In this document: in pieces, positions 2,648 to 26,409 of the stretch
Position numbering within the stretch: position 1 is the stretch's first letter
Layout of the letters: every line of letters begins with the position of its first letter
UHGV virus genome: UHGV-0248180
DNA: 37,455 bases
Strand: one strand, 5' to 3'
DNA from: a virus
Notes under the pieces: generated by a model
The model's database searches: none
Seen by the model: only the letters and a program-made list of their open reading frames with translations
Told to the model about the DNA's origin: nothing
Made by a program: the position numbers and the translations under genes

Positions 2648-3128
2648 TTTTAAAAACTCGCTGGTATGATTTAGATGATGGGGATGATGGCATTTCAGTT
2701 GATAGAGTTGACTGGAATGGCTGTTCCGAAGATATGAAAAATTTGCTGATTAGGGAGTTTAGAATGGGATATCAACCAGTTAAGCCATCTACTGCAACAG
2801 ATGATAAATTCGTGTGTATTCATAATGGTCGCGCTAAATTAACGAACACTGATTGGTTCACAGATAAGATTATGATTCTGTGGTATATTATTAGTTTTCC
2901 TGTGACATCATTTATATTTTGCTTCTTTGGAGAAAGTCCAGTAGACAGAACGGGAGATTGGATTATTTTAACCATACTTGTTAATATTTTTACAGCAGCA
3001 ATATTATCTGGGATATGGTACACGTTCATTGAAATGCCATGGCGTTTACGCAGACAGCAAAAGATTTATGATGAAAAGAAATATGCTCAAAATTTAAATA
3101 GCTTTATCACTGAATGCAGGAAATTAAA

Positions 3129-3132
<4 letters not shown>
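2644..3132 (+). CDS. hypothetical membrane protein (162 aa), C-terminal ITECRK motif
   Basis: ORF; ATGA overlap with upstream gene; hydrophobic segments. Confidence 0.55.
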
Positions 3133-4101
<969 letters not shown>

Positions 4102-5994: not shown

Positions 5995-6357
5995 ATGAAA
6001 GCATATCAAATTCTTGAAGGCACACATAAAGGTACTATTTATTTTGAAGATGGTATTCAAGCACGAATTATTGTCTCTAAAACCTTTAAAGAGGACTCTT
6101 TTGTAGACCCAGAAATTTTCTATGGTTTGCATGCCCGTGAAATTGAAATTGAGCAACAGCCTACAGTTAAAATTGAAGGTGGTCAACACCTGAACGTTAA
6201 CGTTCTGCGTCGCGAAACTCTGGAAGATGCAGTTAAGCATCCGGAAAAATATCCGCAGCTGACCATCCGTGTATCCGGTTATGCAGTTCGCTTTAACTCT
6301 CTGACTCCGGAACAGCAGCGCGACGTTATTGCTCGTACCTTTACTGAGAGTTTGTAA
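5995..6357 (+). CDS. Autonomous glycyl-radical cofactor, GrcA/YfiD-like (120 aa)
   Basis: C-terminal ~65 aa ([60 protein letters not shown]) match E. coli GrcA as I recall it, including glycyl-radical motif RVSGY; codon usage of that segment is host-like. Confidence 0.9.
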
Positions 6358-6578
6358 TGGCAAAGATAATTATTGAAGGTTCTAAAGATGTGCTAAATGC
6401 TTTCGCCGAGTGGTTTAGTAATTCAGGCGAACAGCAATTTAATGAAGCGTGGAACATAGGTGATATTGATGGAATTTATCCTACGACAGAAATTTCTGTT
6501 CAGGGATATGGCATTCATGAACCTATTCGTTTAGTTGAATATGATTTATGTACTGGTGAGGAAGTCAAATATGATTGA
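6357..6578 (+). CDS. hypothetical protein (73 aa)
   Basis: ORF, TAATG overlap with upstream gene. Confidence 0.45.
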   Translation: MAKIIIEGSKDVLNAFAEWFSNSGEQQFNEAWNIGDIDGIYPTTEISVQGYGIHEPIRLVEYDLCTGEEVKYD

Positions 6579-6837
6579 AGATATTAAGGGTTATAAACCA
6601 CATACTGAAGAGAAAATCGGTAAAGTGAATGCTATTAAAGACGCTGAAGTTCGTTTAGGACTTATCTTTGACGCTTTATACGATGAATTCTGGGAAGCAC
6701 TAGATAATTGTGAAGATGATGAACTCGCGAAGAATTATGCTGAAAGCCTCGATCAGTTAACTATTGCTAAAACGAAACTCAAAGAAGCCAGTATGTGGGC
6801 TTGTCGTGCAGTGTTCCAACCAGAGGAAAAATACTAA
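6571..6837 (+). CDS. hypothetical protein (88 aa)
   Basis: ORF with GAGGAA RBS before ATG 6571. Confidence 0.45.
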
Positions 6838-7115
6838 TGGCTCAATTAAGTGCAGGGTTTGGTTATGAGTATTATACTGCACCTCGTCGTGTATCTGCCG
6901 CTCCTAAGAAAATTCAAAGTCTTGATGACTTCCAGGAAGTAGTCCGTAAAGCTTTTCAGGACTATGCACGTTATCTTAAAGAAGATTCACAGGACTGTCT
7001 CGAAGAAGATGAAATTGCTTACTATGAGCAGCGTCTTGAACAGCTTAAAAACTTACATGAGGTTCGTGCAGAAGTTTCAAAGTCTATGAATAAATTGATT
7101 AGATTTAAAGAATAA
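6837..7115 (+). CDS. hypothetical protein (92 aa)
   Basis: ORF, TAATG overlap. Confidence 0.5.
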
Positions 7116-7117
7116 CT

Positions 7118-7147
7118 GTTTACTTTTCCTCTTGACTGTGGTATAAT
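7118..7147 (+). promoter_or_regulatory. T4 early promoter upstream of regB (GTTTAC-N18-TGgTATAAT)
   Basis: GTTTAC 7118-7123; TG 7139-7140; TATAAT 7142-7147. Confidence 0.65.
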
Positions 7148-7174
7148 TTTTCTATCAGTTAAGAGGAGAATAAC

Positions 7175-7636
7175 ATGACTATCAATACAGAAGTTTTTAT
7201 CCGTCGAAATAAGCTTCGTCGTCACTTTGAGTCGGAGTTTCGTCAAATTAACAATGAGATTCGTGAGGCATCAAAAGCAGCAGGAGTCTCATCGTTTCAT
7301 CTAAAATATTCTCAGCATCTTCTTGATCGTGCAATTCAACGGGAGATTGATGAGACATATGTTTTTGAATTATTCCATAAAATAAAAGACCATGTTTTAG
7401 AAGTTAATGAATTCCTGAGTATGCCTCCACGTCCTGACATTGACGAGGATTTTATTGATGGGGTTGAATATCGTCCTGGGCGTTTGGAAATTACAGATGG
7501 AAATCTTTGGCTTGGATTTACGGTTTGTAAACCTAATGAGAAGTTCAAAAACCCGTCACTTCAATGTAGGATGGCAATTATCAACAGTCGTCGTTTACCA
7601 GGAAAGGCTTCTAAAGCAGTAATTAAAACTCAATGA
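7175..7636 (+). CDS. regB: RegB sequence-specific endoribonuclease (153 aa)
   Basis: Translation matches T4 RegB from memory; own Shine-Dalgarno contains the RegB target GGAG (7164-7167). Confidence 0.92.
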   Translation: MTINTEVFIRRNKLRRHFESEFRQINNEIREASKAAGVSSFHLKYSQHLLDRAIQREIDETYVFELFHKIKDHVLEVNEFLSMPPRPDIDEDFIDGVEYRPGRLEITDGNLWLGFTVCKPNEKFKNPSLQCRMAIINSRRLPGKASKAVIKTQ

Positions 7637-7643
7637 GGTAAGC

Positions 7644-8189
7644 ATGAGAAAAGCACTACTCGCTGGTCTATTGGCCATTTCAATGATGGCACATAGCTCC
7701 GAGCATACTTTCAGTAATGTCCAACTCGATAACATGCGTTACGCGTATCAATTCGGGGAACAATTTTCTAAGGATGGAAAATATAAAACACACAAAAATA
7801 TCCACAAGAGCGGATTAGGTCATATAATGGCTGCTATTTTATGGCAAGAAAGCTCTGGCGGAGTTAATTTAAAATCTAAACCAAAGCATCACGCCTATGG
7901 AATGTTCCAAAATTATTTGCCTACTATGCGAGCAAGAGTTAAGGAACTTGGTTATAATATGACCGATGCTGAAATAAAAAGAATGTTGAATAAACGGTCC
8001 AATTCAGCTTCCTGGGCGTACATTGAACTTTCTTATTGGTTAAATATACATAAGGGCGATATAAGAAAAGCAATATCCTCTTATAATTCGGGATGGAATG
8101 TTAAAGCAGGTTCTAAATATGCTTCTGAAGTCCTAGAAAAGGCTAATTACCTTAAAAATAATAAACTTTTGGAAATAGTAAATGACTAA
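7644..8189 (+). CDS. Secreted lytic transglycosylase-like protein (SLT domain), signal peptide
   Basis: N-terminal signal peptide; SLT motifs ES (ILWQESSGG), GMFQ (GLMQ-like), YNSG (AYNAG-like). Confidence 0.75.
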   Translation: MRKALLAGLLAISMMAHSSEHTFSNVQLDNMRYAYQFGEQFSKDGKYKTHKNIHKSGLGHIMAAILWQESSGGVNLKSKPKHHAYGMFQNYLPTMRARVKELGYNMTDAEIKRMLNKRSNSASWAYIELSYWLNIHKGDIRKAISSYNSGWNVKAGSKYASEVLEKANYLKNNKLLEIVND

Positions 8190-8523
8190 AATTTTGGTTT
8201 TATGTATAGGATTAATTTCATTTTCTGCGTTAGCAGATACATCATATACTGAAATTAGAGAATATGTAAACCGTACTGCAGCGGATTATTGCGGGAAAAA
8301 TAAAGCATGTCAAGCTGAATTTGCGCAGAAATTAATATATGCATATAAAGACGGAGAAAGAGATAAATCAAGCAGATACAAAAATGATACATTGTTAAAA
8401 CGATATGCTAAAAAGTGGAATACCTTAGAATGTTCAGTTGCGAAGGAGAAAGATAAAGCCGCTTGTCATTCAATGGTTGACCGTTTGGTAGATTCTTATA
8501 ATCGAGGATTGAGTACTAGATGA
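8182..8523 (+). CDS. vs: hypothetical protein with N-terminal signal-like segment; positional candidate for vs (valyl-tRNA synthetase modifier)
   Basis: Synteny (regB - vs.1 - vs in T4) and size only; sequence identity not verified. Confidence 0.45.
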   Translation: MTKILVLCIGLISFSALADTSYTEIREYVNRTAADYCGKNKACQAEFAQKLIYAYKDGERDKSSRYKNDTLLKRYAKKWNTLECSVAKEKDKAACHSMVDRLVDSYNRGLSTR

Positions 8524-8987
8524 TTGTAAAATATATCAAGGGCGATATTGTCGCCCTTTTCGCTGAAGGTAAAAATATTGCGCATGGATGCAATTGTTTT
8601 CATACTATGGGTTCAGGCGTAGCGGGTCAATTAACCAAAGCTTTCCCTAAAATTTTGGAAGCTGATAAATTACAGACTGAATGGGGTGATGTAACTAAAC
8701 TCGGTTCTTACTCAGTCTATGAAAAATACTTTAGGACTCATAAAGCGTATTGCTTCAACCTTTATACTCAATTTCAACCAGGGCCAAATTTTGAGTATTC
8801 CGCTTTAATGAATTGTATGTTAGAATTAAATGAGTTTGGTGAAAATAAACTGATTAAACCTACAATCTATATGCCTAGGATTGGTGCAGGCATAGGTAAA
8901 GGGAACTGGGATATTATTGAGGGGATTTTAGATACATATTCCTCTAAATTAGAAATTGTGATTGTTGATTGGGAACCGTTATTATGA
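8520..8987 (+). CDS. Macro-domain protein (putative ADP-ribose binding/hydrolase)
   Basis: Motifs HGCNCFHTMGSGVAGQ and PRIGAGIGKGNW resemble macro-domain diphosphate-binding loops (NAAN..GGGV and GIGTGIYG). Confidence 0.7.
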   Translation: MIVKYIKGDIVALFAEGKNIAHGCNCFHTMGSGVAGQLTKAFPKILEADKLQTEWGDVTKLGSYSVYEKYFRTHKAYCFNLYTQFQPGPNFEYSALMNCMLELNEFGENKLIKPTIYMPRIGAGIGKGNWDIIEGILDTYSSKLEIVIVDWEPLL

Positions 8988-9196
8988 ATATACATTATCC
9001 ACATCCGTATGACCCAAAGAATAAGGCAGTAATTATTCGTCAATGGGAACGCATTTGCCGTACTAAATGTCCAATTAATAGTCCACATGATGTAGATAAA
9101 GACTACATTGGAACATTCGTTGAATATACCTTTATTGATAAGAAAGGTCGTAAACAGCATGTAGAAGAATACTGCTTAAAGGTGACATGGTTATGA
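8984..9196 (+). CDS. hypothetical protein (70 aa)
   Basis: ORF, ATGA overlap with upstream stop. Confidence 0.45.
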   Translation: MNIHYPHPYDPKNKAVIIRQWERICRTKCPINSPHDVDKDYIGTFVEYTFIDKKGRKQHVEEYCLKVTWL

Positions 9197-9399
9197 GCCA
9201 AACTAGTATTCTTAAAAATGCCCACTGTGAAAAGTGTAAATGGCCGGTTGTTTTTGCTTTATGCAACGATGAAATGGCTTGTGATTTCGATTATTGGTGC
9301 TATTGTTCTAATAAAGGATGCATCAATCATAAAGGTGAAGGATTTTATTCGGGATTTTATCCTTATCCAGATTTCGTTAAAGAAGGTAAACCGAAATGA
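9193..9399 (+). CDS. hypothetical Cys/His-rich small protein (possible zinc-binding)
   Basis: ORF; multiple Cys/His (CEKCKW..CNDEMACDFDYWCYCSNKGCINH). Confidence 0.45.
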   Translation: MSQTSILKNAHCEKCKWPVVFALCNDEMACDFDYWCYCSNKGCINHKGEGFYSGFYPYPDFVKEGKPK

Positions 9400-9569
9400 A
9401 TAGTTCTGAGTTACAATATGAAGTGTTACGTGAACTTGATAATTTAATTGAACTCGCTGTTAATAAAGGTTTTGCCATTGGAATTGGTCAAAAAGATACT
9501 GATCATTTAACTGTGGAAATATTTAAGCAAAAGCGAATTATTTTAAAACTTTTGGAAATTAATATATGA
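9396..9569 (+). CDS. hypothetical small protein (57 aa)
   Basis: ORF below track cutoff, ATGA overlaps at both ends. Confidence 0.4.
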   Translation: MNSSELQYEVLRELDNLIELAVNKGFAIGIGQKDTDHLTVEIFKQKRIILKLLEINI

Positions 9570-9751
9570 GTTTAAGCAAAGAACAAAAAGACAAACTCTT
9601 TTCTCTTATCCACGAAGTTATGGATAAAAACAGTGAATTGGAAAAAGTTTGTGATGAATGCGGTCCTTTTAATGCAAATGAATACGAAGAACTTTCTAAA
9701 GAATTCGATAATAAAGAACAAGAACTCATTGATTATATAAATTCTTTATGA
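9566..9751 (+). CDS. hypothetical small acidic helical protein (61 aa), member of a small paralog family
   Basis: ORF; shares N-terminal xxEQKxK(L/I)F motif and acidic C-terminus with 9748 ORF. Confidence 0.5.
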   Translation: MSLSKEQKDKLFSLIHEVMDKNSELEKVCDECGPFNANEYEELSKEFDNKEQELIDYINSL

Positions 9752-9936
9752 TTACTCGCGAACAAAAGAACGAAATATTATTTTTAGTTGGTGAAATTAT
9801 TAGTTTAGAAAAGGATTTGTCTTTTGAATTATCTTCTGATTATGGAGATGCCGAAACATATTACGAATTAGTAAAATTTATCGATAAAGCTGAAAATGAT
9901 TTAGAAACATATTTAGAAAATTTAACTAAGGACTAA
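9748..9936 (+). CDS. hypothetical small acidic helical protein (62 aa), paralog of 9566 ORF
   Basis: ORF; ATGA overlap. Confidence 0.5.
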   Translation: MITREQKNEILFLVGEIISLEKDLSFELSSDYGDAETYYELVKFIDKAENDLETYLENLTKD

Positions 9937-9937
9937 A

Positions 9938-10519
9938 ATGGCGAGTTTAATTTTTACTTATGCAGCAATGAATGCTGGAAAATCTGCTTCTCTTTTGACT
10001 GCTGCACATAATTATAAAGAACGCGGAATGGGTGTATTAGTTCTTAAACCTGCTATTGATACTCGCGATTCTGTCTGTGAAGTCGTTTCTCGCATTGGAA
10101 TTAAACAGGAAGCGAATATTATTACGGATGATATGGATATTTTTGAGTTCTATAAATGGGCTGAAGCACAAAAAGATATTCATTGCGTATTTGTAGATGA
10201 AGCTCAGTTTTTAAAAACTGAACAGGTGCACCAATTAAGCCGAATTGTTGATACATATAATGTTCCTGTTATGGCTTATGGATTAAGGACTGATTTCGCT
10301 GGAAAATTGTTTGAAGGTTCTAAAGAACTTTTAGCGATTGCAGATAAACTTATTGAACTAAAGGCAGTTTGTCATTGCGGCAAAAAAGCGATTATGACAG
10401 CTCGATTAATGGAAGATGGAACACCAGTTAAAGAAGGTAATCAAATCTGTATTGGTGATGAAATTTATGTTTCTTTGTGCAGAAAACATTGGAATGAATT
10501 AACTAAAAAGCTTGGTTAG
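9938..10519 (+). CDS. tk: Thymidine kinase (193 aa)
   Basis: P-loop MNAGKS, zinc ribbon CHCGKKA..CRKH; matches T4 Tk from memory. Confidence 0.95.
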   Translation: MASLIFTYAAMNAGKSASLLTAAHNYKERGMGVLVLKPAIDTRDSVCEVVSRIGIKQEANIITDDMDIFEFYKWAEAQKDIHCVFVDEAQFLKTEQVHQLSRIVDTYNVPVMAYGLRTDFAGKLFEGSKELLAIADKLIELKAVCHCGKKAIMTARLMEDGTPVKEGNQICIGDEIYVSLCRKHWNELTKKLG

Positions 10520-10528
10520 TGCAAAAGT

Positions 10529-10536
10529 TATAAATA
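10529..10536 (+). promoter_or_regulatory. Candidate T4 late promoter box TATAAATA
   Basis: Exact octamer 26 nt upstream of ATG 10562. Confidence 0.4.
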
Positions 10537-10561
10537 GGTTTATCTAACTAAAGGGGTATAT

Positions 10562-10774
10562 ATGCTACAATTAACTGAAAAGCAACTTCGCAATCTTACT
10601 GTGCTTCAATTAGATGAAATTCGTAGGGAAGTTGGAAATATCATTTCAGCTTTGCGTCGAGAAGTATCACTCAACCAATCTCCGGCAGACTATACTAGAT
10701 TGCGAAATTTTGAAAAATACCTTGATAAAGTTAAGGCCGTGCATCGGCATAAAGTAAATACAGGACAAAAATGA
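10562..10774 (+). CDS. hypothetical protein (70 aa)
   Basis: ORF; GGGG RBS. Confidence 0.5.
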
Positions 10775-10786
10775 TAGGAGGCCTTT

Positions 10787-11080
10787 ATGGCCTTAAAAGC
10801 AACGGCACTTTTTGCCATGCTAGGATTGTCATTTGTTTTATCTCCATCGATTGAAGCGAATGTCGATCCTCATTTTGATAAATTTATGGAATCTGGTATT
10901 AGGCACGTTTATACACTTTTTGAAAATAAAAGCGTAGAATCGTCTGAACAATTCTATAGTTTTATGAGAACGACCTATAAAAATGACCCGTGCTCTTCTG
11001 ATTTTGAATGTATAGAACGAGGCGCGGAGATGGCACAATCATACGCTAGAATTATGAACATTAAATTGGAGACTGAATGA
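10787..11080 (+). CDS. rI: Lysis-inhibition antiholin RI (97 aa) with N-terminal signal-anchor
   Basis: Translation MALKATALFAMLGLSFVLSPSIEANVDPHFDKFMESG... matches T4 RI as I recall it; position next to tk as in T4. Confidence 0.8.
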   Translation: MALKATALFAMLGLSFVLSPSIEANVDPHFDKFMESGIRHVYTLFENKSVESSEQFYSFMRTTYKNDPCSSDFECIERGAEMAQSYARIMNIKLETE

Positions 11081-23654: not shown

Positions 23655-24128
23655 ATGTTATTGACTGGCAAATTATATAAAGAAGAAAAACAGAAATTTT
23701 ATGATGCACAAAACGGTAAATGTTTAATTTGCCAACGAGAACTAAATCCTGATGTTCAAGCTAATCATCTTGATCATGACCATGAATTAAATGGACCAAA
23801 AGCAGGAAAGGTACGTGGATTGCTTTGTAATCTCTGCAATGCCGCAGAAGGTCAAATGAAGCATAAATTTAATCGTTCTGGATTAAAGGGACAAGGTGTT
23901 GATTATCTTGAATGGTTAGAAAATTTACTTACTTATTTAAAATCCGATTACACCCAAAATAATATTCACCCTAACTTTGTTGGAGATAAATCAAAGGAAT
24001 TTTCTCGTTTAGGAAAAGAGGAAATGATGGCCGAGATGCTTCAAAGAGGATTTGAATATAATGAATCTGACACCAAAACACAGTTAATAGCTTCATTTAA
24101 GAAGCAGCTTAGAAAGAGTTTAAAATGA
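23655..24128 (+). CDS. 49: Endonuclease VII, Holliday junction resolvase (157 aa)
   Basis: Translation matches T4 gp49 from memory; zinc motif CLICQ..CNLC. Confidence 0.95.
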   Translation: MLLTGKLYKEEKQKFYDAQNGKCLICQRELNPDVQANHLDHDHELNGPKAGKVRGLLCNLCNAAEGQMKHKFNRSGLKGQGVDYLEWLENLLTYLKSDYTQNNIHPNFVGDKSKEFSRLGKEEMMAEMLQRGFEYNESDTKTQLIASFKKQLRKSLK

Positions 24129-25942
24129 CAATTGAAAAAGAAATTGAAGGATTGATTCATAAAACTAATAAAGACCTTTTAAACGAGAATGCTAATAAAG
24201 ATTCTCGTGTTTTTCCAACTCAACGGGACCTTATGGCTGGTATTGTGTCTAAACACATTGCCAAAAATATGGTCCCGTCTTTTATTATGAAAGCGCATGA
24301 AAGCGGAATTATTCATTTCCATGATATTGATTATTCCCCTGCTCTTCCATTTACTAATTGTTGTTTAGTAGATTTAAAAGGAATGCTTGAAAACGGATTT
24401 AAGCTTGGTAATGCACAGATTGAAACTCCTAAATCAATTGGCGTTGCTACTGCAATTATGGCGCAAATTACTGCGCAAGTTGCTTCCCATCAATACGGCG
24501 GAACGACTTTTGCGAATGTAGATAAAGTACTTTCTCCTTATGTTAAACGCACCTATGCAAAACATATTGAGGATGCAGAAAAATGGCAAATCGCTGATGC
24601 GTTGAATTATGCTCAATCTAAAACAGAAAAAGACGTATACGATGCATTTCAAGCTTATGAATATGAAGTAAACACTCTCTTTAGTTCAAACGGACAAACG
24701 CCTTTTGTAACAATTACATTTGGTACGGGAACTGACTGGACTGAACGAATGATTCAGAAAGCAATTCTGAAAAATCGTATTAAAGGTCTTGGTCGTGATG
24801 GGATAACTCCTATTTTCCCTAAGCTTGTTATGTTCGTTGAAGAAGGCGTTAATCTTTATAAAGACGATCCGAATTACGACATTAAGCAACTTGCTCTAGA
24901 GTGTGCAAGCAAAAGGATGTATCCTGATATTATTTCAGCTAAGAACAATAAAGCTATCACTGGTTCATCTGTTCCTGTTTCTCCAATGGGTTGCCGTAGT
25001 TTCTTGAGCGTATGGAAAGATTCGACTGGTAATGAAATTCTTGATGGACGTAATAATCTTGGTGTTGTAACACTGAATCTTCCTCGCATCGCGTTAGATT
25101 CTTATATTGGAACACAGTTCAATGAACAGAAATTTGCTGAATTATTCAATGAACGAATGGATTTATGTTTTGAAGCTTTGATGTGTAGAATTAGTTCCTT
25201 AAAAGGAGTTAAAGCTACTGTTGCTCCTATTCTTTACCAAGAAGGTGCATTCGGGGTTCGTCTTAAACCTGATGACGACATAATTGAGTTATTTAAAAAC
25301 GGTAGAAGTTCAGTGTCTTTAGGATACATTGGTATTCACGAATTGAATATTCTTGTCGGTCGTGATATTGGACGAGAAATTTTAACTAAAATGAATGCTC
25401 ATCTTAAACAGTGGACTGAAAGAACTGGATTTGCTTTTAGCTTGTATTCTACTCCCGCTGAAAACCTTTGTTATCGCTTCTGTAAACTTGATACTGAAAA
25501 ATATGGAAGTGTAAAAGATGTTACTGATAAAGGCTGGTACACTAATAGTTTCCATGTTTCAGTAGAAGAAAATATTACTCCGTTTGAAAAGATTTCTCGC
25601 GAAGCCCCATATCATTTCATTGCGACAGGTGGTCACATTTCTTATGTTGAACTTCCTGATATGAAAAATAACTTAAAAGGTCTTGAGGCCGTGTGGGATT
25701 ATGCTGCACAGCATTTAGATTATTTTGGTGTTAATATGCCAGTAGATAAGTGTTTTACATGCGGAAGTACCCATGAAATGACTCCTACTGAAAACGGATT
25801 TGTTTGTTCTATTTGTGGAGAAACTGATCCTAAAAAGATGAACACAATAAGAAGAACATGTGGTTATTTGGGAAATCCGAACGAGCGCGGATTTAATCTT
25901 GGCAAAAATAAAGAAATCATGCATAGGGTTAAACACCAATGA
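24125..25942 (+). CDS. nrdD: Anaerobic ribonucleoside-triphosphate reductase NrdD (class III), 605 aa, uninterrupted
   Basis: C-terminal glycyl-radical motif RRTCGYLG and zinc ribbon CFTCGS..CSICG. Confidence 0.95.
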   Translation: MTIEKEIEGLIHKTNKDLLNENANKDSRVFPTQRDLMAGIVSKHIAKNMVPSFIMKAHESGIIHFHDIDYSPALPFTNCCLVDLKGMLENGFKLGNAQIETPKSIGVATAIMAQITAQVASHQYGGTTFANVDKVLSPYVKRTYAKHIEDAEKWQIADALNYAQSKTEKDVYDAFQAYEYEVNTLFSSNGQTPFVTITFGTGTDWTERMIQKAILKNRIKGLGRDGITPIFPKLVMFVEEGVNLYKDDPNYDIKQLALECASKRMYPDIISAKNNKAITGSSVPVSPMGCRSFLSVWKDSTGNEILDGRNNLGVVTLNLPRIALDSYIGTQFNEQKFAELFNERMDLCFEALMCRISSLKGVKATVAPILYQEGAFGVRLKPDDDIIELFKNGRSSVSLGYIGIHELNILVGRDIGREILTKMNAHLKQWTERTGFAFSLYSTPAENLCYRFCKLDTEKYGSVKDVTDKGWYTNSFHVSVEENITPFEKISREAPYHFIATGGHISYVELPDMKNNLKGLEAVWDYAAQHLDYFGVNMPVDKCFTCGSTHEMTPTENGFVCSICGETDPKKMNTIRRTCGYLGNPNERGFNLGKNKEIMHRVKHQ

Positions 25943-26409
25943 ATTACGATAGATTTTATCCCTGCGATTTTGTGAATGGCCCTGGATGCAGGGTCGTTCT
26001 TTTCGTTACAGGTTGTTTGCATAAATGTGAAGGGTGTTATAATAAATCAACATGGAATGCTAGAAATGGTATTCCATTCACTGGTGAAACACTAGAACAA
26101 TTAATTGAATGTTTGAATAATGATTATATAGAAGGATTAACTATAACTGGAGGAGACCCTCTCTATCCTGATAACCGAGATGTTATTCATTGCATCGTTC
26201 AAACAGTAAAAAATCTTTATCCCAATAAAAGCATTTGGTTGTGGACAGGATATAAGTTTGAAGATATTAAACAACTAGAAATGCTTAAATATGTTGATGT
26301 TATTATTGATGGGAAGTATGAGAAAAATCTTCCGACTAAAAAGCTGTGGCGAGGATCAGATAATCAGCGACTTTGGTCAAATACCGATGGGGTGTGGAAA
26401 CATGATTAA
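25939..26409 (+). CDS. nrdG: Anaerobic RNR activating enzyme NrdG (radical SAM), 156 aa
   Basis: Radical-SAM cluster motif CLHKCEGC; ATGA overlap with nrdD. Confidence 0.93.
   Translation: MNYDRFYPCDFVNGPGCRVVLFVTGCLHKCEGCYNKSTWNARNGIPFTGETLEQLIECLNNDYIEGLTITGGDPLYPDNRDVIHCIVQTVKNLYPNKSIWLWTGYKFEDIKQLEMLKYVDVIIDGKYEKNLPTKKLWRGSDNQRLWSNTDGVWKHD

Follow-up and report, generated by a model that had tools for sequence, protein, structure and literature searches.

The DNA analysed here, a window of 37,455 nucleotides from the virus genome UHGV-0248180, carries a small open reading frame that a first-pass annotation had described as a macro-domain protein of a vs-tk accessory cluster. It had been proposed that the product reverses ADP-ribosylation, either that imposed on DNA or protein by host defence toxins, or that carried out by the phage's own ADP-ribosyltransferases. 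The question raised by this locus is which kind of macrodomain the gene encodes, which ADP-ribose conjugate is its likely substrate, and by what chemistry that conjugate would be processed.

The tk.4 gene and the fold of its product

The window is T4-like phage DNA of the genus Tequatrovirus, and the best DNA matches of positions 7600-10600 were Shigella phage SHBML-50-1 (99.1% identity) and RB14 (98.6% identity). The product of the open reading frame was identical to T4 Tk.4 (NP_049723.1) at 155 of 155 residues, and the gene occupies the same vs/tk.3 position as in T4. Despite the identical protein, the genome is not that of T4 itself; two additional small open reading frames lie between tk.3 and tk.2 in the window region. 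Knowledge of tk.4 goes back to the T4 sequence itself, and an 'A1pp/macro' annotation has been attached to the gene for years; the RefSeq label of T4 Tk.4 reads 'phosphatase; contains A1pp phosphatase motif'.

The features of the locus are listed in Table 1. The genes regB, vs.1 and vs (together 7175..8523, plus strand) are closely packed with tk.4 on the same strand, and the order regB - vs.1 - vs - tk.4 - tk.3 - ... - tk is the order annotated in RB14 and T4, in agreement with the earlier placement of the gene in a vs-tk cluster. The translation of vs and tk.4 may be coupled through the ATGA overlap between them. No toxin gene is annotated in the tk.4 block, where tk.4 adjoins vs and tk.3.

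Table 1. Features of the tk.4 locus, with positions in the window
Feature	Coordinates	Strand	Basis or comment
regB	7175-7636	+	ORF; RB14/T4 annotation; upstream context, outside the enzyme
vs.1	7644-8189	+	ORF; RB14/T4 annotation; upstream context, outside the enzyme
vs	8182-8523	+	ORF; RB14/T4 annotation; upstream context, outside the enzyme
ATGA overlap, vs stop / tk.4 start	8520..8523	+	Sequence; annotated likewise in RB14 and T4
tk.4 / adfM CDS, stand-alone macro domain	8520..8987	+	ATG to TGA (8985-8987); 155 aa plus stop
Loop 1 of the ADP-ribose pocket, residues 22-37, HGCNCFHTMGSGVAGQ	8583..8630	+	Sequence; includes H22, N25 and the Gly-rich turn G31/G33
Gln84 codon CAA	8769..8771	+	Column of TARG1 K84 / DarG K80 / SCO6735 Gln85
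Loop 2, diphosphate-binding loop, residues 119-130, PRIGAGIGKGNW	8874..8909	+	Sequence
ATGA overlap, tk.4 stop / tk.3 start	8984..8987	+	Sequence; RB14 and T4 annotation

In terms of regulatory elements, a promoter scan placed a sigma-70-like site at 7119-7147, upstream of regB. The promoter and terminator scan of 6400-10800 gave 19 promoter-like sites compared to 18.5 expected from shuffles, and none of these was specific to tk.4. A hairpin within tk.4 (8538-8558) was rejected because, in spite of its 9-bp stem, it folded no better than shuffled sequences (z=-0.6). The tRNA and Rfam scans of the window gave no RNA genes.

The macro-domain call of the first-pass annotation was borne out by profile, model and fold searches, with matches far better than chance would give. 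Pfam Macro (PF01661) gave Tk.4 a score of 27.7 bits (E=2.9e-6), above its gathering cut-off of 22, in an alignment that ran over residues 22-132 of the protein and positions 2-113 of the 118-position profile, and PHROG 335 matched with E=1.3e-65. A collection of 5.8 billion proteins held 203 homologues. The AlphaFold2 model of Tk.4, which was built on 98 homologues, reached a pLDDT of 96.2 and a pTM of 0.91 and had the three-layer alpha/beta/alpha fold, in which two Gly-rich loops serve to bind ADP-ribose. When the model was compared with known structures, as had been suggested, the best Foldseek match was human TARG1/OARD1 (4J5R; E=1.7e-10, TM 0.74/0.82), and yeast Poa1p (6LFQ) was the second-best structural neighbour. 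Among PDB proteins, the tk.4 family profile reached BT1257, TARG1, SCO6735, Poa1p and DarG, with E-values from 1.5e-19 to 2.7e-12. By both structure and profile, the closest members were TARG1/ALC1-like and not of the MacroD, PARG or viral classes, and because of these nearest neighbours Tk.4 is assigned to this class as a stand-alone macrodomain.

The ADP-ribose pocket and its catalytic residues

The two macro-like loops that had been picked out of the sequence were both found to be strand-to-helix loops in the model, with loop 1 following strand 20-24 and preceding helix 33-41, and loop 2 lying between strand 115-118 and helix 130-140. Loops of this kind are the place where macrodomains bind ADP-ribose. 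Across the 98 homologues, Gly33, Ala35, Tyr82, Gln84, Pro119, Ile121, Gly122 and Gly124 were invariant, and His22, Gly23, Cys24, Asn25, Cys26, M30, Thr83, G128 and Trp130 were among the residues that were at least 90% conserved. Asn25 aligns with Asn27 of SCO6735 and Asn23 of PhiKZ AdfM, both of which are required for activity (PMC9411070 and PMC13309987, respectively).

Gln84 of Tk.4 ('YTQ') stands where TARG1 (Lys84) and DarG (Lys80, 'PTK') have their catalytic lysine, and it aligns with Gln85 of SCO6735. These equivalences were taken from an 82-sequence L-INS-i alignment, and the placement of TARG1 and DarG was also obtained in a 13-sequence MAFFT alignment. The smaller alignment set the 'NMIGQ' of SCO6735/BT1257 three columns off the 'NLYTQ' of Tk.4, a placing that was rejected and that the 82-sequence alignment corrects. 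The numbering of SCO6735 was confirmed on the 5E3B sequence, and the TARG1 and Poa1p sequences used were identical to the PDB chains; those of DarG, SCO6735, BT1257 and ALC1 were rebuilt from HMMER alignments and lack their termini. One T4-like relative (L028) has a lysine at position 84, and this natural Q/K exchange supports the equivalence of Gln84 with the lysine of DarG and TARG1. The counterparts of loop 2 of Tk.4 are PRIGCGLAGG in SCO6735/BT1257 and PRIGCGLD in TARG1, whose Asp125 corresponds to Gly126 of Tk.4. Judged by these alignments, the active site of Tk.4 is of the glutamine type found in SCO6735 and not of the lysine type found in DarG and TARG1.

SCO6735 of Streptomyces coelicolor (5E3B) and BT1257 of Bacteroides (2AFC/2FG1) have in common with Tk.4 the glutamine at the position of the catalytic lysine together with the positioning asparagine, and SCO6735 is likewise an orphan with no adjoining DarT gene. 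SCO6735 strips thymidine-linked ADP-ribose and rescues cells from DarT. The Q85A and Q85E variants abolished the removal of thymidine-ADP-ribose, and N27S led to a near-complete loss of activity on dT-ADPr DNA, Asn27 being the residue that fixes the rotamer of the glutamine; the mechanism proposed is water-mediated and does without a catalytic lysine (PMC9411070). The lysines of its mobile loop (Lys89 and Lys94) have been credited with DNA binding (PMC9411070). The likeness has its limits, as the identity of SCO6735 and BT1257 to Tk.4 is only 20-30%, and their mobile loop behind the glutamine has 13-14 residues and is thus 5-6 residues longer than the loop from Gln84 to Tyr93 of Tk.4, which has 8 residues (FQPGPNFE) and no lysine. 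The calculated pI of Tk.4 is 5.9, compared to 9.9 for SCO6735, 8.9 for BT1257 and 9.0 for Thermus DarG, and Val25 of SCO6735 corresponds to Gly23 of Tk.4.

The differences from DarG (Thermus 5M31/5M3E, M. tuberculosis 5M3I) and from PhiKZ gp104 begin with the 'PTK' lysine of those proteins, which is 'YTQ' in Tk.4. DarG also has a C-terminal DarT-binding domain and a gene located beside darT, and Tk.4 has neither. The NCBIfam equivalog profile for DarG (NF048014) scored Tk.4 at 30.3 bits, far below its cut-off of 250, over profile positions 2-146 of 338, and the phmmer matches of DarG to Tk.4 were at E=5e-4 and 6e-3.

PhiKZ gp104 carries the 'PTK' lysine and matches DarG at E=9e-25, and its match to Tk.4 covers 23 aligned residues only (BLASTP E=0.005). 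[quoted passage not shown] Because of the lysine/glutamine difference, the DarG-likeness of PhiKZ gp104 and the match of only 23 residues, the two proteins that bear the name AdfM, T4 Tk.4 and PhiKZ gp104, are clearly of separate macrodomain lineages. TARG1 has the same short loop behind the catalytic position as Tk.4, but its catalytic dyad Lys84/Asp125 is represented by Gln84/Gly126 in Tk.4. TARG1 takes ADP-ribose off thymidine (PMC9411070, PMC12879935).

Anti-DarTG2 role and candidate chemistries

The anti-DarTG2 role of tk.4 is already known, having been reported in 2025. According to the HIDEN-SEQ preprint (bioRxiv 10.1101/2025.11.20.689424, 20 Nov 2025), a T4 transposon library was screened on E. 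coli expressing DarTG2, and tk.4 was the sole significant transposon hit on this host. A clean tk.4 knockout was sensitive to DarTG2 while wild-type T4 was resistant, and adfM (anti-DarT factor, macrodomain) was adopted as the new gene name. The preprint, which is not peer reviewed, ties the knockout phenotype to special conditions (M9-glucose, 30 C), describes a tk.4 phenotype on the DarTG2 host only, and gives the removal of ADP-ribose from DNA by T4 Tk.4 as the authors' own deduction that 'seems likely' (bioRxiv 10.1101/2025.11.20.689424).

Since the protein in the window is identical to T4 Tk.4 at all 155 residues, the plating test that the first-pass annotation had called for, in which phage that carry the gene and phage that lack it are compared on DarTG hosts, has already been done on the same protein, with the predicted outcome. 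The proposed reversal of ADP-ribosylation is supported for a DNA-modifying host toxin, and its other branch, the phage's own Alt, ModA and ModB, found no support. The literature searched, including papers on panels of DNA and RNA ADP-ribosyl hydrolases, holds no report of in-vitro de-ADP-ribosylation by T4 Tk.4.

We consider it probable, at roughly 0.7, that Tk.4 is an orphan antitoxin-like ADP-ribosyl glycohydrolase that clears DarT2-made thymidine ADP-ribose by means of an SCO6735-type Gln84/Asn25 site. The role in this reading is that of the published genetics on the identical protein, and the chemistry we infer from class membership and residue conservation. Host DarT2 would ADP-ribosylate thymidines in single-stranded phage DNA, the two-loop pocket of Tk.4 would take up the DNA-linked ADP-ribose, and the bond between ribose and thymine would be cut, after which phage replication would resume. 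Gln84 would be held in place by Asn25, and no catalytic lysine would be used. Among the members of the class, DarG, TARG1 and SCO6735 remove thymidine-linked ADP-ribose, and Poa1p is the sole exception among those tested (PMC9411070, PMC12879935).

Two precedents were counted in favour of the anti-DarT2 reading. DarTG1 is countered in T4 by the NADAR enzyme AdfN (gene 30.3), which removes guanine-linked ADP-ribose from DNA (PMC11825919), and PhiKZ AdfM follows the same orphan-antitoxin strategy against DarT2 (PMC13309987). Counted against the glycohydrolase reading were the weak sequence similarity of Tk.4 to DarG, its acidic pI and lack of a lysine-bearing mobile loop, and the fact that, by sequence, its nearest biochemically characterised relative, the Adpp protein of Vibrio phage Gary, is a small-molecule phosphatase.

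Gary Adpp is a Macro protein that was found by LC-MS to dephosphorylate ADP-ribose-1''-phosphate, a step that lets the NARP1 pathway rebuild NAD+ against the RES-domain defence aRES (bioRxiv 10.64898/2026.01.28.702374, January 2026). Adpp (KNV71_gp137) is a homologue of Tk.4, with 34.8% identity by tblastn (E=3e-15), and belongs to the same phage protein family, sharing the H-x-C-N-C motif, the glutamine and the Gly-rich loop 2; the residues in common are H22, C24, N25, C26, Q84, G88, P119, I121, G124 and W130. The two differ in that the Adpp gene lies between those of Adps and Namat, that the substrate of Adpp is a free metabolite, and that Adpp has a 7-residue insertion behind the glutamine and 'GLAGG' in place of the 'GIGKG' of Tk.4. 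It is conceivable, though not likely, that Tk.4 combines a lysine-independent, water-mediated cleavage of thymidine-ADP-ribose like that of SCO6735 with an Adpp-like ADP-ribose-1''-phosphate phosphatase activity. If this dual activity is true, a single 155-residue enzyme would weaken both DarTG2 and the RES-type NADases, two NAD-based defences that are unrelated to each other, and the forms of the protein with a short loop and Ile125 or with a long loop and Leu125 would mark a shift in substrate preference.

These forms were recognised among 79 related IMG/VR loci that were classed by their adjoining genes. In 27 of 29 distinct sequences with T4-like synteny (Tevenvirinae), 8 residues separate Gln84 from Tyr93, while this loop has 11-15 residues in 7 of the 8 sequences that adjoin NARP1 genes (Fisher p=2.6e-5 against the T4-like set, uncorrected for ancestry). 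Residue 125 tracks the length of this loop almost perfectly, being Ile where the loop is short and Leu where it is long (p=2.7e-16, with no phylogeny correction). From the sequences at hand, this split would best be read as a correlation and not as an established subfamily boundary. A neighbour-joining tree seemed to set the Tevenvirinae clade apart from the NARP1-linked homologues, but bootstrap support was weak, both for this split (26/100) and for monophyly of the phage family with respect to the reference proteins (22/100), and therefore no clade claim is made.

That Tk.4 is mainly a small-molecule phosphatase, which converts ADP-ribose-1''-phosphate to ADP-ribose and thereby counters RES-domain NADases (aRES) or clears a toxic metabolite, is in our view unlikely. 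Both Poa1p and phage Adpp have this activity, the RefSeq label 'phosphatase' implies the same for Tk.4, and the homology to Gary Adpp, with its shared pocket residues and the failure of bootstrapping to set the T4 clade apart from the NARP1-linked homologues, points in this direction. However, Adpp is of use only alongside the NARP1 enzymes Adps and Namat, and a tblastn scan for these two, which covered the window, T4 1-50 kb and T4 56-113 kb, gave no match better than E 0.83. To our knowledge, going by the T4 gene list, T4 50-56 kb and 113-169 kb hold no Adps or Namat genes. Given their absence from the window and the scanned parts of T4, an Adpp-type role would have no pathway to feed. The short loop of the Tevenvirinae-syntenic sequences, as opposed to the long loop of the NARP1-linked ones, and the covariation of residue 125 also speak against it, and the sole tk.4 phenotype reported concerns DarTG2, a DNA-modifying system. 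The comparison with Poa1p is mixed. Of the Poa1p residues that are mutated in deposited structures (mutant names taken from PDB titles), His23 corresponds to the conserved H22 and Ser30 to Thr29, which keeps the hydroxyl, but Phe152 is lost, being Gly126 in Tk.4; Poa1p also has a serine at the position of Gln84.

Less probable still is a mainly non-catalytic protection against DarTG2, in which Tk.4 would bind or block DarT2 or sequester its product. The catalytically dead variants SCO6735 Q85A, DarG K80A and TARG1 K84A do inhibit DarT in vitro by interaction, SCO6735 most strongly (PMC9411070). Tk.4, at 155 residues, lacks the C-terminal DarT-binding domain of DarG, and the strict conservation of its pocket (Gln84, Asn25 and both Gly-rich loops) in phages of many hosts argues for catalysis and against the recognition of a single toxin.

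It seems highly improbable that Tk.4 undoes or modulates the marks that the phage's own Alt, ModA and ModB place on host proteins by ADP-ribosylation or RNAylation. T4 has three ADP-ribosyltransferases (modA and modB are annotated), and a built-in eraser is conceivable. Arginine is the residue modified by the Alt and Mod enzymes, but the substrates of the TARG1/ALC1-like class are ester-linked (Asp/Glu) and thymine- or uracil-linked ADP-ribose, the arginine-specific macrodomain MavL of Legionella is absent among the structural matches listed for Tk.4, and the tk.4 phenotype is described, in the preprint text available, on the DarTG2 host only. Just as improbable is that Tk.4 breaks down immune signals or by-products derived from ADP-ribose (cyclic ADPR isomers, O-acetyl-ADP-ribose), a role proposed generally for phage macro domains, for it has no experimental link, the T4 NADAR enzyme under the same prediction proved to act on DNA (PMC11825919), and the one phenotype of tk.4 is that on DarTG2.

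Distribution of tk.4 and its meaning for phage defence

Relatives of tk.4 were found in 2847 of 50,697 phage records, mostly in large myoviruses of enterobacteria, Pseudomonas, Vibrio, Acinetobacter and Aeromonas, and the database records of these homologues mostly read 'phosphatase' or 'hypothetical protein'. The T4-like alleles fall into discrete classes, with 221 records at 95% identity or more, 159 at 80-90%, and then a step to about 58%, the type of HY01 and L041. One related locus (L041) keeps 93-100% identity to the window on either side of the gene, but across the tk.4 body (about 8560-9030) the identity drops to 37-77%. This pattern indicates that T4-like genomes which otherwise share 93-100% identity exchange the tk.4 body as a cassette. 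Such sharply bounded allele replacement would be typical of arms-race selection, and it was counted in favour of the anti-DarT2 reading.

Since the role of tk.4 is already published, finding it again adds little. What our data add is an active site that is not DarG-like, the separate lineage of PhiKZ AdfM, and the presence of the phosphatase Adpp in the same phage protein family. Given the glutamine-type site, an AdfM in PhiKZ that is of another lineage, and the Adpp phosphatase, whether T4 Tk.4 acts as a DNA glycohydrolase, as a phosphatase or as both is a matter of inference. With the chemistry unproven, an SCO6735-type site and a phosphatase at 35% identity, the transfer of function across the roughly 2,800 phage homologues is unsafe without assays. 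The blanket 'phosphatase' annotation of these homologues lumps together two or more roles that experiments have told apart. For the biology of these phages, tk.4 is a case in which a toxin-antitoxin defence is disarmed by an enzyme that brings in the activity of the antitoxin on its own, and T4 would have two such genes, one for the NADAR enzyme AdfN, which is directed at DarTG1, and one for the macrodomain Tk.4/AdfM, which is directed at DarTG2.

Genes around tk.4 and the nrdD-nrdG region

The features of the window that surround the macrodomain gene tk.4, together with the more distant nrdD-nrdG region, are listed in the table. The vs.1 product has an N-terminus that, as judged by eye, is hydrophobic and resembles a signal peptide, and it matched the SLT lytic transglycosylase domain with an E value of 1.4e-5. 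According to the preprint describing HIDEN-SEQ, a T4 transposon screen, vs is the T4 gene with the strongest depletion in minimal medium (bioRxiv 10.1101/2025.11.20.689424). The T4 record states that NudE is active on ADP-ribose, and it can be speculated that NudE could clear ADP-ribose freed by Tk.4.

Features of the window in and around tk.4 and in the nrdD-nrdG region
Feature	Window position	Description
nudE	3114-3569	151-aa NUDIX protein; ~5 kb upstream of tk.4
vs.1	7644-8189	
vs	8182-8523	Directly upstream of tk.4
Perfect 9-bp inverted repeat (AAGGGCGAT...GTCGCCCTT)	8538-8558	Codons 7-13 of tk.4
First small ORF	9187-9399	Between tk.3 and tk.2
Second small ORF	9396-9569	Between tk.3 and tk.2
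gp49, NrdD, NrdG, in that order	23655-26409	157 aa, 605 aa (uninterrupted) and 156 aa; ORF sizes and order

The two small ORFs are absent from T4 but present in RB14 and RB32 (RB32ORF111c/110c); the first of them encodes a Cys-rich product of 70 aa that matched the Pfam 'phage zinc binding domain' (PF23895, E=2.6e-29). In the nrdD-nrdG region, comparison of the ORF lengths with the T4 annotation suggests that the window phage lacks both the nrdD group I intron with I-TevII of T4 and mobC, the gene for a homing endonuclease that in T4 separates nrdD from nrdG.

The tk.4 message and its database labels

The 101-nt region around the inverted repeat did not fold better than its shuffles (z=-0.6). 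In a T2 RIL-seq preprint, the host sRNA ArcZ was found to contact the tk.4 mRNA, with the protein level unaffected.

The labels attached to tk.4 conflict across public records, where they include 'phosphatase', 'Macro domain protein', 'Poa1p-like family protein' and 'hypothetical protein', and one T2 preprint refers to the gene as 'putative thymidine kinase'. The name adfM, used in the HIDEN-SEQ preprint, was absent among the tk.4 database records listed.

Allele variation and position 84 of Tk.4

The window was compared with positions 5080-8000 of L041, a T4-like contig from IMG/VR. The genes flanking tk.4 were 93-100% identical, whereas identity within the tk.4 body (window 8560-9030) was 37-77%, and a second block covering tk.2/tk.1 (window 9574-9934) was likewise divergent or deleted. 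The pattern resembles a cassette-like exchange of alleles. Across the phage database, identity of tk.4 fell into discrete classes of at least 95%, 80-90% and ~58%.

Another relative is carried by L028 (IMGVR_UViG_2974573495_000001, 6001-6450), a T4-like phage in which the regB/vs.1/tk synteny is kept and in which position 84 of Tk.4 is Lys, not Gln (NLYTKF). Since Lys is what DarG and TARG1 rely on for catalysis here, L028 represents a natural Q-to-K switch inside the Tk.4 family.
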